This document shows, one piece after another, positions 1-39,892 of a stretch of 64,000 bases of DNA. The DNA comes from an uncultured Nitrososphaerota archaeon (GTDB taxonomy: Archaea; Thermoproteota; EX4484-205; JAAOZP01): the NCBI GenBank assembly GCA_964616835.1, contig CAZTSG010000001.1, positions 8,830 through 72,829 on the forward strand. The letters run 5' to 3'. Below the pieces are notes generated by a model. That model saw only the letters and a list, made by a program, of their open reading frames with translations, did not search any database and had not been told where the DNA came from. The position numbers and the translations under genes are program-made. Positions within the stretch are counted from its first letter, which is position 1. Each line of letters opens with the position of its first letter.

Positions 1-1
1 T

Positions 2-241
2 CGTTACGAGATTCGCATTAAACCAGGCGGGGAAATACCTTTGCAGGATATAAGGTCAATATCCGGAGTGACGGAGATCATACGGAGCGAAAACCGTGTA
101 ACAGTAGTATCTATGAAAGAAATAGGTAACGAACTGCTTTCTCTTGTTGCAAGACCACCGTTCAAAGAACTTGTTGAATCTCTAACTCCCATAGAACCCT
201 CTTGGGAAGAAATATACCGTTTCTACCAGGGAGGTGGATGA
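2..241 (+). CDS. partial CDS (5' end outside window): probable C-terminal domain of an ABC transporter ATP-binding protein
   Basis: Open frame runs from the window edge (frame of the 41..241 ORF). It ends 3 nt before the ABC-2-like permease gene. The C-terminal sequence resembles the extension of ABC-2 type ATPases. Weak. Confidence 0.3.
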   Translation, partial: RYEIRIKPGGEIPLQDIRSISGVTEIIRSENRVTVVSMKEIGNELLSLVARPPFKELVESLTPIEPSWEEIYRFYQGGG

Positions 242-244
242 GAA

Positions 245-1210
245 ATGATGAGTGACGCTTTCTCGATTGCACGGAAGGAATTTGTCGATGCAGTAACTGG
301 TAAGAGGCTATGGCTGGTTGCAGGAATATTCCTATTGTTTTCAATAGCCAGCACTTATTCAACATCCTTTGGCTTCATGATGGGGATTCAGCAAGCAACA
401 AGGCAGATGGTTCAGATAGCTTCAGCAATAGCTTCGACAACAGCATACATGGCTCCATTACTAGGCATAGCATTAGCCTTCGACGCCGTGTCTGGGGAAA
501 GGGAGCGCGGAACCCTTAGGCTCCTGCTTTCAAGACCAATATACAGGGAGGATGTGATAAACGGGAAGATAATATCAGCGCTCGCCGTAATAAGTTTAAC
601 TATGGCAATATCCTCGTTGGCATCAATATCAGTCTCAATACTACTGCACAATGTTGCTGTTACGCTCGACGATACTGCAAGAATCTGTGTCTTCGTAGCT
701 TTTTCAATAATTCTCTCCTTCGCATACTATGCCTTATCGCTTTTCATCTCGACATTCTCAAGCAAATCAAGCCACTCGCTCATAATTAGCATAGGCATCT
801 GGATTTTCTTTGCATTTATACTGCCCATAATAAGTAGCCTAGTTGCATTCATTGTCTTAGGGTCCCCTCCTGCTAGGGCTATTACTGTTTTCAATATGAC
901 GCAGAGACAGCAGTTCGGAAACTTCACGTTTCCAAGAGAGTCGGAAGAATATTTAAACTACAGGAAGAGGGTAGCAGAGATCTCGAGCACAGTAGAGTCT
1001 TTTTCAATAAATTATCATTACACGCAAATAACTAGTTCGCTCTTCGGCTTTGTCACAGGGCCTCTTGAATTCGGGCAGAGGGGAAGAGCAACCGCCAGCA
1101 TTTCTACAGTGCTTTCAACACGCATAGCTGACATCGTGATACTCATAGTCTTCCCAATGGTCTTCCTATTCGCCTCCTACATGGTGTTTACGAAGAGACA
1201 GGAAAAATAG
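245..1210 (+). CDS. polytopic membrane protein, ABC-2 family permease-like
   Basis: 321 aa with several hydrophobic helices. Tightly follows the partial ATPase-like ORF, an operon-like arrangement typical of ABC-2 exporters. Confidence 0.45.
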   Translation: MMSDAFSIARKEFVDAVTGKRLWLVAGIFLLFSIASTYSTSFGFMMGIQQATRQMVQIASAIASTTAYMAPLLGIALAFDAVSGERERGTLRLLLSRPIYREDVINGKIISALAVISLTMAISSLASISVSILLHNVAVTLDDTARICVFVAFSIILSFAYYALSLFISTFSSKSSHSLIISIGIWIFFAFILPIISSLVAFIVLGSPPARAITVFNMTQRQQFGNFTFPRESEEYLNYRKRVAEISSTVESFSINYHYTQITSSLFGFVTGPLEFGQRGRATASISTVLSTRIADIVILIVFPMVFLFASYMVFTKRQEK

Positions 1211-1248
1211 ACAGATATTTTCTCTCAAATAAAACACTATTAGTTTTC

Positions 1249-2127
1249 TCAACGCTTATTTTCATACTCCATCGTTAATGCTCCAATATTGCCTGTTAGA
1301 GGTAATTTACTGGCTACGGGATCTCCATAGTAAGTCCTGACATGCACTTCTCCAATGGGTAGGAGGTGGTTTAACAGGCTGGCCAAATCTGAAGGGTTTA
1401 ATGTCGTGTAGAATGGGTTTACCTCAATTATCTTTTTCGATGCCTCGACGCCACGTAGTTTTCTGAACACGTAGTCGTTGAAAGTGTAGAACTTGTCTTC
1501 AAGAATTAATCCATGGAGTTCTTCGATAATTGCTATGGTGCTCCCATATCTCAAGACCTTGCCCTTTGTTTTTAAATCCTCAAAGGCTTCTTCCGTTATT
1601 TTGACAGGGTAATAGCCGAAGTTGATAACACCATTTCTCTCCGAGAAGCCTATAGCATTCTTCAAATCGTGCCACTCAACATCATACGTTACTTTTCGAG
1701 CCCCAGAAACATCATTAAACGGTTGCGAGATGGTGTAATAAAGCCTCCTGTAGATCTTTCTGAATCCAACTTTTTCAAAGAGGCTTACTGCTAAAGCATT
1801 ATCCTCCATGACGAAAAGATAAACATGTTTGGAATTTAGACTGTTCAAGGCTATTTTTAAAAGACTGCTCCCTATCCCTCTCCCCCTGAAAACCTTATGG
1901 ACCAGTAGGCCCCCAATATAACCGGAATCGTAAATATAGTTCAGCGAATAAATGCATCCAATAACTTCATCATTAATCTCCGCTACAAAAATTTTGAAGC
2001 TTTCTAATTGGCTTAGCGTTTTCACTATGGGAATATTCATCAGATACGTGAAGGGGATGCCCTCATGCTGTTCGAACAGCTTAACTATTTTATCCACATC
2101 CCTGCTCTCCTTGATGACAATACCCAT
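1249..2127 (-). CDS. GNAT family N-acetyltransferase
   Basis: Motif VFRGRGIGSSLLKIA matches the GNAT acetyl-CoA binding motif (Q/RxxGxG/A). 292 aa. Confidence 0.6.
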   Translation of the reverse strand: MGIVIKESRDVDKIVKLFEQHEGIPFTYLMNIPIVKTLSQLESFKIFVAEINDEVIGCIYSLNYIYDSGYIGGLLVHKVFRGRGIGSSLLKIALNSLNSKHVYLFVMEDNALAVSLFEKVGFRKIYRRLYYTISQPFNDVSGARKVTYDVEWHDLKNAIGFSERNGVINFGYYPVKITEEAFEDLKTKGKVLRYGSTIAIIEELHGLILEDKFYTFNDYVFRKLRGVEASKKIIEVNPFYTTLNPSDLASLLNHLLPIGEVHVRTYYGDPVASKLPLTGNIGALTMEYENKR

Positions 2128-2142
2128 CCTACTGCAGCTTAC

Positions 2143-3759
2143 TCAATAGTCTGACTCAAAAGTGTTTCTTAAAACTCCCTTCTTCTCCTGCTGCCTCCTG
2201 TATAATTCGCCGACTCTCTTCAAAGTATCTACTTCGGATAGTGGTTTATCGCTTCGTATCCTTGTTATTCTCGCAAACCTTAGGGCGAAGCCAGACCTGT
2301 ACTTCGGGCTCCTCTGTATTTCGCTGTAGGCTACTTCAACAACTATCTCCGGCTTAACCCAGACAGTATTATCTTCTTCACCTATCTTCAGCTCTAATAG
2401 TCTCCTCGTCATTTCTTCAAACTCCTCGTCAGTTAAACCCTTGAATGTTTTCCCTATTATCTCATAGTTTCCAGTCTCCTCGTCTAATGCTGCTAAGAAG
2501 TAATCGCTTAACCATCCTGTCCTCCTACCGTATCCCCATTGGGCACCTACAATAACCAGGTCCAAGTAGTCTGCTGTTTTCAGTTTAAACCAGAGGTTGC
2601 CTCTTGCTCCAGGTATGTAGGGGCTTTGGAGAGACTTAGCTACAACTCCCTCATGCCCTTCCTCAACAGCTTTTCTCATGAATTCCTCAGCCTCACTGAT
2701 GTTTGAAGTAATTATTCTAGGGGTTAATTCTGAAGGCTTTACGATTCTTTCAAGCTCTTCCCATCTCCTAGAATACGGCTCGTCTATTAACTGCCTGCCG
2801 TTCAGATAAATCACGTCGAAAAGATATAGTTTTAGAGGTATGCGCTTCATCTCCTCCTCGATATTCTTAACCTTAGTAAACCTCCTCATCAAGTCTTGGA
2901 ACGGCAACGGCCTGCCGTCAGCCCCTACGGCTATGGCTTCACCGTCGAGTATGGCTTCTTCAGCATCTACTCCGTTAACAACTTCTTCGACCACGTCTGG
3001 AATGCTCACAGTCACTTCCGTTAAACGCCTGCTGAAAATCTTAATCTCGCTCCCTTTCTTATGAATCTGTACCCTCGCCCCGTCAAACTTGTATTCGAGA
3101 GCAACAGCCTTATGATACTTGAATACCTCTTGAAAACTGTAGGCCATTTGCGCGAGCATCGGCTTAACCGGATGGAAAAGCGTTAGACTAATGGACTTTA
3201 AACCCTCCTTGCCTGAGGTGAGGGCGACTTCAGCAACCTTGCCAAGGTTTCCCGAGAACATTAAAGCCCTCCTGACGAGGTCTAGGCTAGTGTTGGATGC
3301 CTTAGAAATGGCTTCAAGCATTACCCCCTCTCCAACTCCATGCTGCATTTCTCCAAAAATGTTTTTCACAATATACTTTGCTTCAAGCTCTGAAGCTCTT
3401 TCAAGCATCGACCTTAACAGAAGCTCCTTATTCTCCCTGGACTTTGGTCCTGTAACCTTTGCAATCCTATCGAAATAGTCTGCAACATTTAAAATAGTGA
3501 GGGGCTTTTCGAAAAGAGTTTTCTGAGGTGTAGACTCTAAGATCCTGCTTATTGTTGCAAAGCCTATTTCAAGAGTTTTAGAAGAAGACTCCGGAAATAT
3601 TTCACCCACTATCAAGAGCACTGCTGGCGCTATTTCTTCCCTCTTAAGCTTCTTCAAGAACTCGCTTATCATCTTAACTTTCTCCAACCTCTTAGTTGTT
3701 CTGGAGAGTTTTTCACAGAGCTCCGCAAGCTTGCTGAACAACGTATACTGACCTTCCAT
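2143..3759 (-). CDS. lig: ATP-dependent DNA ligase
   Basis: 538 aa. The adenylation motif KxDG is present as EYKFDGARVQIH. The length and motif order are typical of archaeal ATP-dependent DNA ligases. Confidence 0.9.
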   Translation of the reverse strand: MEGQYTLFSKLAELCEKLSRTTKRLEKVKMISEFLKKLKREEIAPAVLLIVGEIFPESSSKTLEIGFATISRILESTPQKTLFEKPLTILNVADYFDRIAKVTGPKSRENKELLLRSMLERASELEAKYIVKNIFGEMQHGVGEGVMLEAISKASNTSLDLVRRALMFSGNLGKVAEVALTSGKEGLKSISLTLFHPVKPMLAQMAYSFQEVFKYHKAVALEYKFDGARVQIHKKGSEIKIFSRRLTEVTVSIPDVVEEVVNGVDAEEAILDGEAIAVGADGRPLPFQDLMRRFTKVKNIEEEMKRIPLKLYLFDVIYLNGRQLIDEPYSRRWEELERIVKPSELTPRIITSNISEAEEFMRKAVEEGHEGVVAKSLQSPYIPGARGNLWFKLKTADYLDLVIVGAQWGYGRRTGWLSDYFLAALDEETGNYEIIGKTFKGLTDEEFEEMTRRLLELKIGEEDNTVWVKPEIVVEVAYSEIQRSPKYRSGFALRFARITRIRSDKPLSEVDTLKRVGELYRRQQEKKGVLRNTFESDY

Positions 3760-3840
3760 TTTCCTCCGGCTCTTCGGAGGAATAATGCTTGGAAAGCTGA
3801 TAAACCTATTGTGTTTTTAAGCAGGTAAATCCTCTGCATC

Positions 3841-4302: not shown

Positions 4303-5379
4303 TTAGCTAATCAGAAGTTCCTCTAGCCCAAGGGCTCTGTAATAAGCCTTTAGCGACCCTCCGTGCAGCAATACCCTCATGGCGGAGGCTAGTTTCACAG
4401 CAATCTCCTCTTCCCATCTCCTCCCAAACCTCTTCCTAGACTCCGCTGCAACACGTCTAATTGCTTCAGCATGGTTTAACCCCTTCTCTAGCAGGTTGAG
4501 AACCTCAAGAACGTCTCGGGGGATTTTTAACGCGCTAATCTCGTCTTCATAGCTTAGGGTTAAGAGCCTCAGGTATTCGCCTACTGTAACTGGTTTCCCA
4601 TTCCAGCATAGTGTTGCATTAACGCCTCTCCGAGCCGCCTCAACCCTAGACTGAAGATAGGCTTCATGCGTTAAATTGTTGCAGGCTTTACTTCCATTCA
4701 TCCAAGCTGAAGTCAAAATCCTCAGTATTGTCATCACGGTGCAAATGTACGGGGGAATGTTGCTGTCGCAAACCCTTATTTCAAGCGTAGGAGGCTTATG
4801 CTTATTCGCTGGGTTAAGATTCATCTCCCTGTAGTGGTTCTGGTTTAACTCGCCTTTGGTTACGGGTATGCAGTACCTTCCTCCAACGCGCAGCATCCTG
4901 TTAGACGAGTATCTCGTTATCCTCCTCCTCCAGACCGGTGAGTTGGAGGAAACCGCTATGAGGAAAGGAATATGGTCGTGAATATAGTTTGCTAGGCTCA
5001 GAGCCTCCTCTCTTCCCAACCCCTTCTCTTTAAAACCTATGTGGAAGTGTGCCCCTGCAAACCTGTCGTTCCACCCTCCTATTGGAAGTGGGAGAGCATT
5101 ACAGCTATTAGATGGATCAGCGTATTTCCCGAGACCTCGGTCTATAGCATATAGCGCCTCAGTTATGTTTTCAAAAGGCTTAGTAACGTATTCCGAACCT
5201 ATACTCTTATCGATGGTAAACCTTTCCCCGCCTTCCGAAGACTTTTCACTGGGAAGCAGCACGCTTCTCGATATTCTTTTCTCCCTAATCAAGATAGTGT
5301 AGCACTCTATCTCAACACCTATCGTGATAGGCTCCTTCTCCTCAACCAGCATGCAACTTGTGCTTCTCGTTTTCAGCAA
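4303..5379 (-). CDS. glutamate--cysteine ligase family 2 (YbdK-like carboxylate-amine ligase)
   Basis: 358 aa. Motifs GVEIECYTI (GxExE) and AGAHFHIGF (HxH.G) resemble the GCS2/YbdK family. Confidence 0.5.
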   Translation of the reverse strand: MLKTRSTSCMLVEEKEPITIGVEIECYTILIREKRISRSVLLPSEKSSEGGERFTIDKSIGSEYVTKPFENITEALYAIDRGLGKYADPSNSCNALPLPIGGWNDRFAGAHFHIGFKEKGLGREEALSLANYIHDHIPFLIAVSSNSPVWRRRITRYSSNRMLRVGGRYCIPVTKGELNQNHYREMNLNPANKHKPPTLEIRVCDSNIPPYICTVMTILRILTSAWMNGSKACNNLTHEAYLQSRVEAARRGVNATLCWNGKPVTVGEYLRLLTLSYEDEISALKIPRDVLEVLNLLEKGLNHAEAIRRVAAESRKRFGRRWEEEIAVKLASAMRVLLHGGSLKAYYRALGLEELLIS

Positions 5380-5479
5380 GCTACTAACGTTAAGGCGAAA
5401 TATAAAATTTATCTTATAATTAAATCTATTTTACTAAATGAATAATGGTTCTTTCCCATTATTCAACGAGGCTTTTCAA

Positions 5480-5800
5480 CGATTCCTGTTTTGAATCACG
5501 ATTCGTGTTCTTAACTGGTTTCAGTGTTTTAAACAGAGGTCTAAATCCTTTTAATCCTTCAACAGTTTTAAACAGGCTAGGAGAAACTGGAAAGATTTTT
5601 CCTAAGCCGATTATCTTTAAAAAACACGTCTTGCAGGAAAACAACTCTCTGAATAACACTGGGAAAAACTGTTTCCCAACCATAATTGAAGAATTCTCCG
5701 AAAACTGTTTGCATTAAAACAGTTAATTTCCGAGAGAGACTTCTAACATCATTGTCATTTCCAAAGCATTTTTTAACCCTTTTTCGAAAACAGATTGAAA
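5480..5800. promoter_or_regulatory. cluster of TGTTT(N)AAACA-type palindromes and half-sites in an AT-rich spacer
   Basis: Direct reading shows tgttttaaaca (~5524-5534), cagttttaaacag (~5563-5575), gggaaaaactgtttccc (~5661-5677) and aactgtttgcattaaaacagtt (~5703-5724, an 8-bp perfect inverted repeat). Further CTGTTT/AAACAG half-sites are present. Confidence 0.35.
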
Positions 5801-6233
5801 ATTGAAGATGCTTCAAATAAACCGGCTCTAGAAAGAAATGGTTTGAAATACTCTGTGTTTCTGAAAGCTATAGTATGCAAGACCAAGGAGACAAACTGGT
5901 TCCTAAAAAACCGTAAGCATGTGGAACATTGTAGCTGGCAAACCTATTTCTGGGCTTAGACGAACCTGCCTGCCATAGAAATTAATTCTAAGCGGGTTTC
6001 CCCGCCTGTTCAACACAGTTGAACCGTCTCAAATGGAGAGCTGAATATATGTTGAAACAAGAAGGGTTGCGAATAAGCATGCAGGCAACTATGGCTGAAG
6101 AATGTGTTTCTACTTGGTTTAAAACCTAGATTATTGATTCTACGATGTTGGATCAATGAAGGTTTATGGCTGTGCAAAGTTCAGGAAAACTTTATATCTA
6201 GGTATGTGATATACTTAGATAGGTGATATTAAG

Positions 6234-6644
6234 ATGTGTGGTGGAAGGAAACTGCCTGCTGGATCATGCTACCACGGTGAAGGAGGGTGCCACGGTGAAG
6301 GGGGGCACATCTATCTTAAGGAAACCCCTGTTAGAGGGCTTTTACACCTATCAATCCTGAACTTGGTTAAGAACGGGCCTGTTTACGGTGCTGAAATATA
6401 TAGGGCTTTAAAAGAAAAGTATAACATTGAGGCTCCAAAAGCCATAATCTACGGTCTACTGAGAAGAATGGAGTACGCTGGCTTCCTAGCTTCAACATGG
6501 GATGTGGAGGGTGGAGGGCCTGCGAGAAGAAAGTATAAGATTACTGAGGAAGGATTAGACTATCTTAAAGACTCGCTGGAAAACCTTAGGAAGGTTAAGG
6601 GGGTAATCGACATTCTCCTCGCTGAGGATGTTGGCAAAGCCTAA
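6234..6644 (+). CDS. PadR family transcriptional regulator with a Cys/His-rich N-terminal extension
   Basis: Winged-helix PadR signature (YGAEIYRAL ... YGLLRRMEYAGFL ... RRKYKITEEG). The N-terminus reads CGG...CYHGEGGCHGEGGH, a tandem HGEGG peptide repeat. It immediately precedes an ABC transporter operon. Confidence 0.7.
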   Translation: MCGGRKLPAGSCYHGEGGCHGEGGHIYLKETPVRGLLHLSILNLVKNGPVYGAEIYRALKEKYNIEAPKAIIYGLLRRMEYAGFLASTWDVEGGGPARRKYKITEEGLDYLKDSLENLRKVKGVIDILLAEDVGKA

Positions 6645-6658
6645 AGGCGGCGAATCCT

Positions 6659-7579
6659 GTGAAAGCTATAGATGCTTTAGACCTTTACAAAAGGTTCGGT
6701 AGCATAGTGGCTGTAGACAGTGTTAGCTTCCAGGTGGAGGAAGGCGAGATATTCGGTCTTCTAGGTCCAAACGGTGCCGGTAAGACGACGACTATCCGCA
6801 TGTTAACAGGCATACTCAAGCCTGATAGAGGAGAGGCTAGAATAATGGGGTACAATATCCATAAGGATCCTGTTAAAGCAAGAATGTTGATCGGGGTGGT
6901 TCCTGAAGAGGCTAATCCGTATCCTGACCTGTCAGCTTGGGATAACCTGATGCTGGTTGGACGCTTATATGGTCTTCCGAAACACGCAGTGGGGGACAGA
7001 GCCTCTAGTCTGCTAAGACTCTTAGACCTATACGATGCTAGGAAACGGAGGGCTGGAAACCTTTCTAAGGGGATGAGGCAGAAGCTTCTCGTGGCTATGG
7101 CTTTAATCGGAGAGCCTAAGGTACTCTTCTTAGATGAACCTACATCCGGGCTTGATGTGTTGAGCACTAGAAAGATACGTAGCCTAATCCTTGACTTGAA
7201 GAAGAATGGTGTCACCATTCTTCTGACGACGCATAACGTAGAGGAGGCTGGAACTCTATGCGACAGGATTCTCATAATAAATGGTGGGCGAGTGGTTGAG
7301 ATGGGGACTCCAGAAGACCTTAGAATTAAGTCCGGGCTGTACACTTATGTGTCTGTGACGCTTAACAGAGCAGTAGACGAGAAGGATGCAGCGGGATTCT
7401 TTGATGAGTGGGATTACAGGATTCAGGGTTCTAGGATTCTCTTTGTTTGCAGTGATCTGACAAAACTGATGGTTAGAATAGTTGAATACGCTAAGGCGAA
7501 GGGTCTCGACATAGTCAACATAAGCACAGCACCGCCAAGCTTAGAGGACGTGTTTGTAAAAGTCATTGCAGGAGGATAG
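6659..7579 (+). CDS. ABC transporter ATP-binding protein (ABC-2/DrrA type), GTG start
   Basis: Walker A GPNGAGKTT, ABC signature LSKGMRQKL and Walker B LLFLDEPTSGLD. 306 aa with a C-terminal extension. Confidence 0.85.
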   Translation: MKAIDALDLYKRFGSIVAVDSVSFQVEEGEIFGLLGPNGAGKTTTIRMLTGILKPDRGEARIMGYNIHKDPVKARMLIGVVPEEANPYPDLSAWDNLMLVGRLYGLPKHAVGDRASSLLRLLDLYDARKRRAGNLSKGMRQKLLVAMALIGEPKVLFLDEPTSGLDVLSTRKIRSLILDLKKNGVTILLTTHNVEEAGTLCDRILIINGGRVVEMGTPEDLRIKSGLYTYVSVTLNRAVDEKDAAGFFDEWDYRIQGSRILFVCSDLTKLMVRIVEYAKAKGLDIVNISTAPPSLEDVFVKVIAGG

Positions 7580-8345
7580 AAGGATGAAAACCGTATCCTT
7601 TAGGCATTTCTCGATAGGTGTATGGACAATATGCTGGAAGGACATTAAACTTTACTATGCTAAGGGACCAATAGTTGTTACAGGTGTGCTTTTCCCTCTT
7701 TTTCTTTGGGCTGCCTTCTACATGGGCAGAGGCCTAGATTTTAATGAAGGATTGGCATCACTAGTAACGTTATCAATCTTCTTCACCTCTTCTTCAGTCA
7801 CACCAATAATAGCACCATGGGAAACTAGGCAGAGAACATTGGAGATGCTTATGTCCAGACCAGTAACAGTGACTACAATACTGGTTGGTGATATCTTGGC
7901 TTCAACGATCTTCGGGTTAATCTTCATAATTCCAATATTTTTATGCGGCGTAGTCCTAGGAGCGATACCAAGCAACGTTTTACTGGCTGCACTATTAACT
8001 GTGATTACCGCCGTAGGATTCTCATCTCTTGGAGTGCTTTTCTCCGCGTTACCTACCGATACACCTGCAGACGTCGTCTTATTAGCTAGCACCGTTAAGC
8101 TGCCCTTAATATTCGTTAGCGGAGTGTTAATACCGCTTTCACAGCTTCCGGAATGGGCTCTAGCAATAGCTGTGGTCTCTCCCTTAACTTATCCCACAGA
8201 CCTTTTGAGGGGGCTTTACATAGGCAACACGTTTTTCCCAATGTTCGCAGATTTTTCAGCTACAGTTGTCTTAACAGTCATATTTACACTAGGTGCTCTA
8301 ATACTTCATAAAAGAACGCTCTTCGCTAGACTACAAAAAAGATAG
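7566..8345 (+). CDS. ABC-2 family transporter permease
   Basis: 259 aa with six predicted TM helices. Its start overlaps the end of the ATPase gene. Confidence 0.7.
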   Translation: MQEDRRMKTVSFRHFSIGVWTICWKDIKLYYAKGPIVVTGVLFPLFLWAAFYMGRGLDFNEGLASLVTLSIFFTSSSVTPIIAPWETRQRTLEMLMSRPVTVTTILVGDILASTIFGLIFIIPIFLCGVVLGAIPSNVLLAALLTVITAVGFSSLGVLFSALPTDTPADVVLLASTVKLPLIFVSGVLIPLSQLPEWALAIAVVSPLTYPTDLLRGLYIGNTFFPMFADFSATVVLTVIFTLGALILHKRTLFARLQKR

Positions 8346-8391
8346 CTAAACTTTGGGTTGCTAACAATCTCCATCCAGAATTACGTTTTTA

Positions 8392-35837: not shown

Positions 35838-38800
35838 CTACACCCTCTCCCTAACCCTCAGCCTCGGAAATATTCCTAGGCTCATCAACTCTTGGAGCAG
35901 GAGCTTGAACGCGTAAGACATTTCTACGCCGCTGACGTCCTTCCCCTTCTCGCAGAGCGGGCAGACATGCTTCTTCTGCTTAGCATCGTAGTAAGCAAAG
36001 GTACCGCACTTCTCGCAAACATACACTATAGTCCTGTCCGACTCTTCTAAAAGCCTGTCTTGGAGAAGCCTGGCTGCGCCATGCCCTACTAGACAGTCTC
36101 TCTCCATCTCTCCAAACCTTAAGCCGCCGCCCCTGGACCTTCCTTCAGTAGGCTGGTGCGTAAGCATCTGGACTTGCCCTCTAGCCCTTGCATGCATCTT
36201 GTCCTTAACCATGTGGTGGAGCCTCTGATAGTAAATTATGCCCATGAAAACCTTTGCTCTGAAGCGTTTCCCAGTGATCCCATCTATGAAATCAAACTCG
36301 CCGTACGGCGAGAAGCCGTGTACTTCAAGAATCTTTTGAACCTCCTGCTCCGGAGCATGTATGAAAGTAGTGCCATCCATCCGCCTTCCCTCAAGTGCTG
36401 CGGCAATACCAAACAACGACTCGAGGAAGTGGCTTATCGTCATCCTAGACGGGATTGCATGCGGGTTTATCAAGAGGTCCGGAACCAAACCGTCCTCGGT
36501 GAAAGGCATATCTGTCTGGGGGACGAGCATTCCGATAACCCCCTTCTGACCAGACCTGGAGGCAAACTTGTCCCCTATCTCCGGAATCCTGTGATCTCTA
36601 ATCCTAACTTTTATCAACCGGTTGTTCTCCAAGTCCTCTGTTATCATCACACTATCCACGTAGCCGCTTTCAGACGGTTTAAGAGCGACAGAAGAGTCTC
36701 TCCGAGCAGGTGCTTGGAAAACAAGCTCCTTATATTCTTCGAAGAACCTCGGTGGGCTTGACCTGCCGACTATAACCTCCCCGCCCTTGACCTCTGCCTC
36801 AACCGAGACTATGCCGTCCTCCTCTATCTTAGCATAGGCCTCGTCCCCCCTGTATCCTCTGACCTGCGAATCAGGCTTCTCTATCCTATCAACCTCGCCC
36901 ATCGGGTACCTCCTGGCTTCAACCTCGTAAGACTTGTAGGTGGTTGATCTCGCTAGGCCGCGCTGAATCGACGCTGCGTTCAAAACTATGGCGTCCTCCA
37001 TGTTGTACGGGTGGGACAGTACCGCAACCATGAAATTCTGACCGATAGGCCTCTTATCCAAGCCTATGATCGGGTCGACTCTAGAGGCTACTAGTGGCGT
37101 CTGAGGATATGTCATAACGTGGAAAGTAGTGTAGAAAGAATTGCTGATGTTAGCGAACGGGAGCCCAAGCGCCTGCTTAGCCATCGCCGCCTCGTAAGTG
37201 TTCCTGGGCGAGTGGTTGTGCTCTGCGAAGGGGACGGTTGACGAGACGACGCCGAACATGAGTATCGGGCTTATCTCCAGATGCGTTGTTTCACTCGTAA
37301 CATCTTTCAAGGATACTGCTATAACAGCATTCTCCTCTTCATCGGCGTCTAGAAATTCAACCACTCCATTATTAACAAGGTCTTCGAAACTTATCTTGCC
37401 GAGGGCGAGCTTCGAAACATGGTCCTTGGTGAGCTTAACCTGCCCCTCTTCAACGACTATGAGGGGCCTCCTAACCCTTCCGGGGTCGGCGTTGAAATAA
37501 ACCTCCTTAACAATCCTGCCGCCGTAGTTAAACTCGTAATATGCTACGTTTATCTCCTGCGGTATTACTCCCCTCCTCCTCAGCCCCCTGATCTCCTTAA
37601 CCAGAGCCTCTCCAGAGTGGGAATAGCCGACTAGGACACCGTCTATGAATATTTTCGCAGCCGTGGAACGCGTCTCCGGATCAGCCTTGGTCACAGGTAC
37701 TAAGCCGAATTTTGAAAGAATCTTGTCGAGCATAGACTTGTCTGCCGATACGGAGACCTGTGCGCCTATGCTCATATTCTTCACGAGCCCACAATTCACG
37801 CCCTCAGGCGTCTCGTTCGGGTCTAGCTTGCCCCATTGAGTAGGATGCAGGTCTCTGGCGTCAAAGTTAGACTGGCTCCTGCTCAGTGGCGATTGGATTC
37901 TCCGCAGGTGGCTTAGGACGGAGAGATAATTAGTCCTGTCCAGTAGTTGAGTGACGCCGACAAGCCTCTTCCCCCAGTTTCCAGTAGCCATAGCTTGGTT
38001 GATGGAGTCTGTGATAAGACTGGTAGTGATCAGGTTTGAGAAAGAGTATATTGCTCTGTGCCTGAGGCTGAACTTTTCAAGCTGGTACCTGAAGTCTCTA
38101 ACCATCCTCCTGAATGATGTTCTGAAAAGCTCTGCGAGAAGCCCGCCGGCAAGCCTGATCCTCTTATTCTTATAATGGTCCTTGTCGTCGGGGGGACGCC
38201 AGCCGAGCTTCATTGCTAGGATCCTCTCAGCCATCTCGCAGAGGAAAAGCGCCTTACTGTATCTGGAAGACTCATCCATACCGATGTGGGGCAGTAGGAT
38301 CTTGTCTAGAACGTTCTGAGTCTTGTTTAAACGAACCCTATCAGACTGGCCGTAGGCAACCCTGTTACCTATGTACATTATAGCGTCCTCCTTGCTCATA
38401 ATATTCTGCGCAGCGTCGAAAGACGGTGCCAGCAATTCCTGGATCTCGGGGAACGGTGAAACATGTTCCGCTATCTCCTTGTCCGAAGTCATTCCCAAAG
38501 CCTTCAGCATTATTACGAATGGGATCTCCTGCCCGACACCGGGGAGATAGACCTTAAGCTCGTTGCTCTGCCCCTTCAGCCTCACCTCAACCCTGGTCCT
38601 ATAGCCTACTGTGGTGGAGAACACGCGTGCAATGTAGAAGGAGTAGGGCCCTATCTTCTTCTCCTCGAGAATTATCCTGTTCGGAGCAAGGTCTTCAACA
38701 CCGACAATGATCCTCTCGGAGCCGTTTATTATGAAGTAGCCACCGGGGTCATAGGGGTCTTCCCCAAGCCTAATCCTCGCCTCCGGACTGAGGCCGGCGA

Positions 38801-39750: not shown

Positions 39751-39892
39751 CCCGCGGTAGCTCAGCCTGGTAGAGCTTCCGGCTGTAGTCCTCCACCGCG
39801 GGTGGGGGCGTTCAGCCTACCGGGCGAACAGAAACCGGAGAGCCGCGCGTGCCGCGCCTGGAGTGTCGCTGGTTCAAATCCAGCCCGCGGGA
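39751..39892 (+). tRNA. tRNA-Tyr (anticodon GUA) with an approximately 68-nt intron at the canonical 37/38 position
   Basis: Acceptor CCCGCGG/CCGCGGG with C1-G72 and A73 (archaeal Tyr identity). D-arm GCTC...GAGC. Anticodon stem TCCGG/CTGGA (one G-U) with loop CTGTAG|intron|C. T-arm GCTGG-TTCAAAT-CCAGC. Confidence 0.65.

Follow-up and report, generated by a model that had tools for sequence, protein, structure and literature searches.

A conserved Cys/His-rich N-terminal tail on a PadR-type regulator encoded with an ABC-2 exporter in an uncultured archaeon

RESULTS

A PadR-type regulator and an ABC-2 exporter form a self-contained cassette

We analyzed a stretch of 64,000 nucleotides, hereafter called the window, from a contig of an uncultured Nitrososphaerota archaeon (assembly GCA_964616835.1, contig CAZTSG010000001.1, positions 8,830 to 72,829). 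On its plus strand lie three consecutive genes, encoding a PadR-type transcription regulator with a short N-terminal tail rich in cysteine, histidine, and glycine, an ATP-binding cassette (ABC) ATPase, and an ABC-2 family permease. An earlier note on this DNA, made from its letters, had proposed a metal-sensing efflux module in which metal binding to the tail would derepress the exporter. In our analysis, this interpretation keeps a conserved tail of sensory appearance and a conserved PadR-ATPase-permease cassette with a palindrome that fits autorepression, but it loses the importance given to a duplication within the tail, the supposed rarity of such tails, and the efflux of metal. The features of the locus are as follows.

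6186 to 6198, plus strand: archaeal promoter core, a purine-rich stretch resembling a B recognition element (BRE) followed by the TATA box TTTATAT (6191 to 6197), recognized by the conservation of TTATATA
6199 to 6217, plus strand: candidate PadR operator, a 19-bp 7-5-7 palindrome (TAGGTAT-GTGAT-ATACTTA), recognized by its conservation across loci
6222 to 6227, plus strand: Shine-Dalgarno-like GGTGAT, 6 nt before the ATG
6234 to 6644, plus strand: PadR-s2-type transcription regulator of 136 amino acids (tail, residues 1 to 32; winged helix, 34 to 103; C-terminal helix, 105 to 133)
6234 to 6329, plus strand: Cys/His/Gly-rich N-terminal tail of 32 residues, MCGGRKLPAGSCYHGEGGCHGEGGHIYLKETP, with Cys2, Cys12, and Cys19 and His14, His20, and His25
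6273 to 6308, plus strand: in-frame 18-bp tandem duplication encoding YHGEGG and then CHGEGG (from the sequence, a repeat search, and orthologue comparison)
6659 to 7579, plus strand: ABC ATPase of the DrrA type, 306 amino acids, GTG start (PF00005, PF13732, TIGR01188)
7584 to 8345, plus strand: ABC-2 family permease, 253 amino acids (PF01061, 74.1 bits against a cut-off of 26.9)
8386 to 8390, plus strand: T5 tract, a possible archaeal terminator, 40 nt after the permease stop (read from the sequence)

The order of a PadR gene followed by the two exporter genes was confirmed, with gaps of 14 nt between the PadR stop and the ATPase and of 4 nt between the ATPase and the permease. The ATPase matched PF00005 (E of 8e-32) and belongs to the drrA subfamily according to NCBIfam (TIGR01188, 320.1 bits against a cut-off of 312.45), and the DrrA C-terminal domain PF13732 was matched at an E of 7e-5 and 23.9 bits, under its cut-off of 27.4 bits. 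Its scores place the second exporter protein among the ABC-2 permeases but outside the DrrB equivalogs, as it reached only 49 bits against the drrB model TIGR01247 (cut-off, 223). Since its orthologues measure 252 to 256 amino acids, the permease most likely starts at the ATG at 7584 and not at the TTG at 7566.

The regulator, whose N terminus reads MCGGRKLPAGSCYHGEGGCHGEGGHIYLKETPVRGLLHL, is a PadR family member by its Pfam match (PF03551, residues 41 to 112, E of 7e-15, 55.2 bits against a cut-off of 27). A profile of the window protein and 21 homologues matched 48 solved PadR chains at an E of <1e-3, the best being the small PadRs 5dym, Thermoplasma TA0346 (3elk), and LmrR (3f8b), which measure 108 to 132 amino acids and consist of a winged helix and a single C-terminal helix. 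The AlphaFold2 model, built from a 22-sequence alignment, was confident for residues 34 to 133, with a predicted local distance difference test (pLDDT) score above 90 for most of residues 40 to 130. It contains helices at 34 to 45, 52 to 63, 69 to 81, and 105 to 133, together with a beta wing. The single helix that follows the wing, at a pLDDT above 90, gives the protein the architecture of PadR subfamily 2 (LmrR, bcPadR1/2), small proteins in which one C-terminal helix follows the winged helix (PMC3506622).

Other known architectures were not recovered. No Trp occurs in residues 105 to 136 (TEEGLDYLKDSLENLRKVKGVIDILLAEDVGKA), and thus the protein has no LmrR-type Trp pore. In LmrR, an aromatic Trp pair of the C-terminal helix lines the central drug-binding pore, W96 being the pore residue. 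A Pfam scan of the PadR protein gave no ArsR or HTH_20 match and thus no indication of an ArsR/SmtB fold. Similarly, the protein is not a member of the Rv3488 family (NCBIfam NF053635, 32.3 bits against a cut-off of 140), and the CopY-type motif CxCx4CxC is absent from the window tail and its orthologues.

Genome and metagenome collections yielded more than 20 distinct loci that combine the PadR, ATPase, and permease genes, with unrelated flanks. In other loci, the gene directly after that for PadR encodes an ATPase orthologue with 43 to 77% identity. The closest relatives belong to metagenome-assembled genomes (MAGs) of Brockarchaeota, Thermoproteota, and "Thaumarchaeota." Nucleotide homology between the window and either of the related loci L010 and L011 extends from 6136 to 8335 only, which defines the cassette borders, and a search for a conserved fourth gene beside the cassette found none, the flanks varying from locus to locus. 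The locus is therefore a self-contained export cassette of an uncultured Thermoproteota/Brockarchaeota-like archaeon.

Several observations concern the surroundings and the variants of the cassette. In the window, the approximately 750 bp between a GCS2-like gene (4303 to 5379, minus strand) and the cassette promoter (5380 to 6135) hold only short listed open reading frames, have no Rfam match, and show no nucleotide homology to L010 or L011. In the Candidatus Brockarchaeota MAG GD2_1 (L001, 5405 to 6229, identical to L012, 4405 to 5229), the PadR gene is intact and followed by fragments of the ATPase and permease genes within about 800 bp; the syntenic locus L009 keeps the full cassette. At L078 (around 1000 to 1090), the PadR gene has no tail, no start codon, and no copy of the conserved promoter, and the ATPase and permease genes are intact; this PadR gene is probably a 5'-truncated pseudogene or a rearrangement. 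Radical S-adenosylmethionine (SAM)/SPASM enzymes are encoded just upstream of some cassettes (L002, 3558 to 4907; L008, 1 to 2046), and a cluster of Nitro_FeMo-Co, DUF5320, and CbiA-Fer4 genes lies upstream of the L006 cassette (1 to 3761). Neither occurs in the window, and both may be coincidental.

The tail is translated and constrained

A segment of such composition might be an annotation or low-complexity artefact, with the true start lying downstream or with the tail representing unconstrained junk from repeat slippage. Indeed, close relatives differ in their number of 18-bp units, and the tail is missing from the annotation of two database entries (P0016 and P0017). However, the next start in frame after ATG 6234 is a TTG at codon 44, within helix 1, and the Shine-Dalgarno sequence and the TATA box lie at a conserved distance from the ATG. 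A stop in frame is found upstream at 6216 to 6218. From this arrangement, ATG 6234 is the true start and has no plausible alternative.

Furthermore, the M-C start recurs in independent assemblies, and Cys2 and the C-H pair recur in orthologues at 45 to 100% identity. Nei-Gojobori counts over 12 orthologue pairs gave ratios of nonsynonymous to synonymous differences (pN/pS) of 0.07 to 0.62 for the tail, well below 1, and of 0.07 to 0.41 for the body. Between the window and L011, the 31 tail codons compared carry nine synonymous and two nonsynonymous differences. Purifying selection on the tail is evident from these counts. Because of the conserved TATA box, palindrome, and Shine-Dalgarno sequence before the ATG, the lack of a nearer start, and the low pN/pS, we conclude that the tail is translated and constrained, in line with the earlier note in placing it within the protein, and that the artefact explanation is effectively refuted.

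In the AlphaFold2 model, the tail is predicted to be disordered (pLDDT below 50 for residues 1 to 25), and no folded zinc-finger-like structure is predicted for it.

The conserved feature of the tail is a Cys/His pattern rather than the repeat

The tandem duplication singled out in the earlier note does exist. Its copies, cacggtgaaggagggtgc at 6273 to 6290 and cacggtgaaggggggcac at 6291 to 6308, are in frame and identical at 15 of 18 bases; the repeat search lists it as a 16-nt repeat of 94% identity, and Tandem Repeats Finder missed it because its score fell under the program's threshold. A repeat this short could occur by chance somewhere within 64 kb. However, the window differs from its closest relative, L010, by exactly one 18-bp, six-codon indel, and the repeat thus reflects a genuine duplication or deletion event.

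The importance attached to the duplication is not supported, since its copy number varies between one and two among close relatives. The repeated peptide unit is (C/Y)HGEGG. A single CHGEGG unit is present in L010, L070, L074, and P0002, which are 85 to 91% identical, and two units are found in the window (and in P0001, L067, and L068), in L011, and in L071, the latter two loci reading CHGEGG-CHGEGG. By synonymous distance, L010 is the nearest relative of the window (body pS of 0.21) and has one copy, whereas the more distant L011 (pS of 0.40) has two, and the unit has thus been gained or lost more than once, as would be expected from slippage at an 18-bp repeat. The two copies in L011 differ by synonymous changes only, indicating that the protein sequence of both has been maintained. 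Copy 1 of the window has Tyr in place of Cys; the tail is left with Cys at positions 2, 12, and 19 and thus equals the single-copy relatives (2, 12, and 13) in its number of Cys.

What recurs across the tails is M-C-G-G, a variable linker, a near-invariant C-H pair (C-H-G in the alignment consensus), and, seven residues ahead of helix 1, H-(I/V)-(C/Y)-L. Position 2 is Cys in every Cys-bearing tail linked to ABC-2 genes except one. Among 27 distinct ABC-2-linked PadRs, 23 have at least three Cys in the tail and 25 at least two. Of the other two, L078 is a 5'-truncated gene, and L027 encodes a tail without any Cys and has a more distant ATPase downstream. Where the last Cys is replaced by Tyr (HIYL), an extra Cys elsewhere usually compensates, as in the window, L010, P0009 (Cys7), and P0013 (Cys3); L087, with two Cys only, breaks this trend. 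Across these alignments, the conserved feature is M-C...C-H...C, usually with at least three Cys per tail, rather than the HGEGG duplication.

Tail composition follows the neighboring exporter

We counted tail types and exporters in 61 distinct PadR relatives with at least 40% identity and sufficient downstream sequence. Cys-rich tails occurred almost exclusively with the ABC-2 pair: the raw table of Cys-rich tail against ABC-2 adjacency was 24/4 versus 3/30, with a Fisher p of 7e-10 that overstates the independence of these phylogenetically related sequences. The tail assignment of L094 was distorted by a frameshift artefact and was corrected by eye, which changed the table to 25/4 versus 2/30, and L078 is 5'-truncated and has no start codon. 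Sister PadRs of the same archaeal clade have no Cys-rich tails (L101 has a short C-x-C tail) and adjoin other exporters, as listed here; in most of these loci, the PadR match lies near position 3001 or 4001.

L133 and L138: poly-His tail MLYYEFHDHHEHEHHKHHHH..., next to a major facilitator superfamily (MFS) exporter
L090 and L018: tail MHHHSRHHHH, next to two ABC_membrane plus ABC_tran half-transporters (ABC-B)
L113, L117, and L100: acidic tail MSSDDLPQGINF, next to ABC_membrane plus ABC_tran half-transporters (ABC-B)
L101: C-x-C tail MAEKKVYDYRCECF, next to a SLAC1/TehA-like protein

Homologues from Thermofilaceae have His/Pro/Trp-rich tails and no adjacent transporter. A Methanomethylicota PadR with the tail MCCEGDCGPNSECCCL (L017, 1358 to 3188, minus strand) lies in convergent orientation to a series of sulfur-relay genes of the DsrE/DsrF family and has no ABC-2 pair; the pair is present at L099, its close relative.

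That tail composition follows the type of the neighboring gene is the strongest argument for a role of the tail in signal recognition, and on this comparison of loci the tail is probably the signal sensor of the repressor. Conversely, the PadR body could sense an organic inducer, as in LmrR, and the tail could be nonsensory, stabilizing the protein, buffering metal, clamping DNA, or binding Zn in a structural role. Among the characterized PadR-s2 proteins, which control drug-type pumps, some bind drugs or peptides, and for others no ligand is known (PMC3506622). The exporter of the window is likewise DrrA-like, and across the wider clade the tails range widely in composition, with Cys-rich, His-rich, Pro/Trp-rich, and acidic types. 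However, a generic stability element is hard to square with tails that track the adjacent exporter, the low pLDDT does not suggest a zinc-finger-like fold, and the C-terminal helix offers no Trp matching the LmrR pore residue. We therefore consider a nonsensory tail rather unlikely.

Taken further, the tails would be interchangeable disordered ligand modules of an archaeal PadR clade, in which tail chemistry and not the folded domain would set inducer specificity: Cys-rich with ABC-2, poly-His with MFS or ABC-B, and acidic with ABC-B. In the Cys branch, the free N-terminal Cys of M-C-G-G would be a reactive sensor for metal, O2 or another oxidant, or aldehyde, a prokaryotic counterpart of the plant MCGGAI switch. 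This wider proposal is speculative, and we would give it low odds.

A conserved palindrome overlaps the promoter

We compared 15 aligned upstream regions of orthologous genes and found TTATATA to be invariant or nearly so; the role of such a TATA/BRE element is that of archaeal promoters in general. Downstream of it, the palindrome has the family consensus TAGGTAt-N5-aTACCTA. It is perfect in L009 (TAGGTAT GTTAT ATACCTA), matches at 6 of 7 positions in the window, L010, L011, L022, L070, and L099, and occurs as a symmetric variant (TAAGTA...TACTTA) in L008. GGTGAT or a one-mismatch variant lies 4 to 7 nt before the ATG in nearly all orthologues. Every orthologous locus shows the elements in one order: TTATATA, TAGGTAt-N5-aTACCTA, (a/g)GTAGGTGAT, 4 to 7 nt, and ATG-TGT.

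A search of the window for further copies of the palindrome gave two matches against 2.6 expected. The other match, at 38353, is at chance level, and 6199 to 6217 is the only one that adjoins a gene of the module. PadR-s2 proteins are characterized as homodimers that bind a palindromic operator in their own promoter, and archaeal repressors usually have their sites between the TATA box and the start of transcription. Since the conserved palindrome overlaps the promoter, autorepression fits, and the 19-bp palindrome, placed between the TATA box and the predicted transcription start, is likely the autoregulatory operator.

A 17-bp direct repeat (6193 to 6209 and 6210 to 6226) was dropped as a candidate operator, the elements conserved across loci being the TATA box, the palindrome, and the Shine-Dalgarno sequence. 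A sigma-70 and terminator scan, which is inapplicable to an archaeon, gave chance-level matches. Scans for Rfam families and tRNAs gave no match within or close to the cassette. Elsewhere in the window, a 142-nt Rfam tRNA match at 39751 to 39892 (plus strand, 46.9 bits), not reported by ARAGORN, is probably an intron-containing archaeal tRNA; this match and the archaeal origin of the closest relatives mark the window itself as archaeal.

Cys/His-rich tails recur among PadRs

The earlier note held that PadR proteins normally lack such a tail, and this turned out to be too strong. A profile search of 1.84 billion cluster representatives (50% identity) returned 6,701 PadRs at an E of <1e-3 and 380 at an E of <1e-10. 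About 25 of the best 150 cluster representatives have at least three Cys in the first 35 residues, and many begin with M-C, indicating that Cys/His-rich tails are a recurrent, uncharacterized add-on in this part of the family.

The distant PadRs with Cys-bearing tails are bacterial and archaeal, and their tails are not homologous to that of the window. Some are followed by a MIP channel and a CobW-type GTPase (L037, 3863 to 6236; L045, 3833 to 6203), others lie beside split ArsP_1 permeases (L035 and L039), and others are followed by NifX-like Nitro_FeMo-Co proteins and Fe-S ParA/CbiA ATPases (L029, L031, L033, L034, and L036). As circumstantial evidence from gene neighborhood, these metal- and cluster-type neighbors back metal- or cluster-related sensing.

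The last group of neighbors also suggests an Fe-S cluster sensor, in which the three Cys and one His of each tail, or both tails of a dimer, would hold a [2Fe-2S] or [4Fe-4S] cluster whose loss or oxidation would alter DNA binding, as in IscR, NsrR, and RsrR. Indeed, a Cys3-His ligand set recurs in the tails, and the same gene types are found near the L006 cassette. However, the NifX-type neighbors belong to the distant PadRs with nonhomologous tails, the number of Cys (2 to 6) and their spacing vary widely, an adjacent C-H pair is unusual as a cluster ligand, and there is no evident reason for tying Fe-S status to an ABC-2 exporter. An Fe-S sensor thus appears distinctly improbable.

The signal could also be chemical modification of the tail, with Cys residues, especially the exposed N-terminal one, being oxidized, persulfidated, or alkylated, so that the repressor would be released and the pump induced. 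Such a thiol redox, reactive-sulfur, or electrophile switch would resemble MexR, OhrR, YodB, and CstR in bacteria or MsvR, SurR, and OxsR in archaea. It would suit tails with several Cys and a nearly invariant Cys2, hosts that appear anaerobic from neighboring genes for radical-SAM and Fe-S proteins, and the Cys-tail PadR at L017 that adjoins DsrE/DsrF sulfur-relay genes. Thiol-based transcription factors do exist in archaea, in the ArsR family (MsvR and SurR) and the TrmB family (OxsR) so far, though not in the PadR family, in which RosR acts in oxidative stress by a mechanism that is not known (PMC9426492). However, disulfide chemistry does not account for the His beside Cys or for the poly-His sister tails, nothing links the ABC-2 exporter to oxidant defense, and the DsrE neighbors are convergent and occur in one locus only. 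We consider a thiol switch unlikely, but it ranks second among the signals that the tail might read.

A metal- or metalloid-chelating tail is the preferred reading

A thiophilic metal or metalloid ranks first among the candidate signals. Metal ligation fits better than disulfide chemistry because of the conserved His beside Cys and the poly-His sister tails. In addition, tails with roughly three Cys in varying places, now and then as Cys-Cys pairs, are reminiscent of the As(III) sites that evolved independently in ArsR repressors (PMC11868830). We thus tentatively favor an autoregulated cassette in which a metal- or metalloid-chelating tail is the sensor, with a probability of roughly 0.35.

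In the mechanism that we propose, a dimeric PadR-s2 repressor would bind the palindrome at 6199 to 6217 and block its own gene and the downstream DrrAB-like ABC-2 exporter. The flexible N-terminal tail would be the signal input. After removal of Met, it would start with Cys1 and offer about three thiolates and the near-invariant Cys-His pair per monomer, by which it would chelate a thiophilic metal or metalloid ion, such as As(III)/Sb(III), Cu(I), Cd, or Zn. The ligand-bound tail would then fold beside helix 1 and loosen DNA binding, which would turn the pump on. The pump itself would export an organic or conjugated substrate and not the bare metal ion. The predicted disorder of the tail agrees with a segment that folds upon ligand binding. 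Repression, ligand binding by the tail, and the identities of the ligand and the substrate are what we infer from the sequence, and metal sensing by the tail is plausible.

Several observations weigh against this reading. Among 24 permease orthologues, Cys, His, and Met are absent from the positions conserved in at least 95%. Most of these positions hold Pro or Gly, and some others are aromatic, polar, or charged, among them those of the E80-R82-T85-E87 motif region. We know of no ABC-2/DrrAB-type pump that exports metal ions. Since the permease has no conserved Cys, His, or Met and the ATPase is DrrA-like, metal-ion export, as the earlier note had it, is not supported, and the substrate is probably organic or conjugated. 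Furthermore, no classical metal-resistance gene is consistently adjacent in the cassette loci, and the poly-His sister tails also adjoin drug-type pumps (MFS and ABC-B), so that tail composition need not mirror a transported metal. In addition, the ABC-2-linked tails of L087 and L130 have only two Cys, and several tails have no His (L022 and L099). As for the operator, the best palindrome of L016 is spaced differently (7-1-7), and the palindrome sits in AT-rich promoter DNA, where palindromes are common.

DISCUSSION

Comparison with known systems

Phenolic acids, drugs, and peptides are the signals to which PadR repressors are known to respond, and few archaeal transcription factors have a defined sensory chemistry. 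A sensory tail would represent a new type of input for the PadR family, and a short disordered tail, lengthened or shortened by 18-bp slippage, could retune a repressor. The locus would then be a compact sensor and pump module of three genes and one operator from thermophile-like archaea, possibly of use as a biosensor. With a nonsensory tail, the locus would be an ordinary PadR-ABC-2 resistance cassette. Our literature search, which left most subscription journals outside its reach so that an earlier description is possible, found no description of a Cys-rich or a metal- or thiol/redox-sensing PadR. Provisionally, we thus regard the pairing of a conserved Cys/His tail on a PadR-s2 protein with an exporter as undescribed among characterized PadRs.

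The design principle of a DNA-binding winged helix with a short Cys-rich terminal tail is shared with CopY of Enterococcus hirae, where the tail swaps or binds metal and DNA is released. However, CopY belongs to the MecI/BlaI family, carries its tail at the C terminus with a fixed CxCx4CxC motif, and targets P-type ATPases. Within the PadR family, Rv3488 of Mycobacterium tuberculosis reportedly binds Cd (structures 5zhc and others) and is, to our knowledge, the only PadR linked to metals. The window protein resembles it by family, with a weak NCBIfam match and a profile match in the PDB (E of 1e-6), but Rv3488 has no Cys-rich N-terminal tail, and the score of the window protein, far under the family cut-off, makes it a nonmember.

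The As(III)-responsive ArsR proteins (R773 ArsR, AfArsR, and CgArsR) are winged-helix autorepressors in which the position of a three-Cys site depends on the lineage and includes terminal arms and vicinal Cys-Cys pairs (PMC11868830). Similarly, the window-type tails retain about three Cys although their places vary, and CC pairs occur in several. Unlike PadR, however, these proteins have the ArsR/SmtB fold; the genes that they control (for ArsB, Acr3, or ArsC) are absent here, and their As(III) sites use no His, which is conserved in the window-type tails. Plant ERF-VII factors start with an MCGGAI N-degron, in which Met excision exposes the O2-sensing Cys (PMC5376641). The likeness to the M-C-G-G start of the window and most close orthologues covers four residues only; fold and domain of life are unrelated, and the plant route needs cysteine oxidases, an arginyl transferase, and ubiquitin-dependent degradation.

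In LmrR-LmrCD of Lactococcus lactis and bcPadR2-BCE3447/3446 of Bacillus cereus, PadR-s2 repressors adjoin ABC efflux pumps, and LmrR is autoregulatory (PMC3506622). The window cassette shares with both a small PadR with one C-terminal helix directly upstream of an ABC exporter, with which it is probably cotranscribed, and with bcPadR2 also the DrrAB-like pump. Neither of these proteins has a Cys/His tail at its N terminus. In LmrR, the drug-sensing site is a dimer pore lined by Trp, and the C-terminal helix of the window protein has no Trp. Furthermore, the window cassette is archaeal, with a TATA/BRE promoter and a candidate operator between the TATA box and the transcription start. By its gene content and order, the locus would thus work like the LmrR-LmrCD and bcPadR2-DrrAB-like pairs, set apart from them by the Cys/His tail, the lack of the LmrR-type Trp, and the archaeal promoter.

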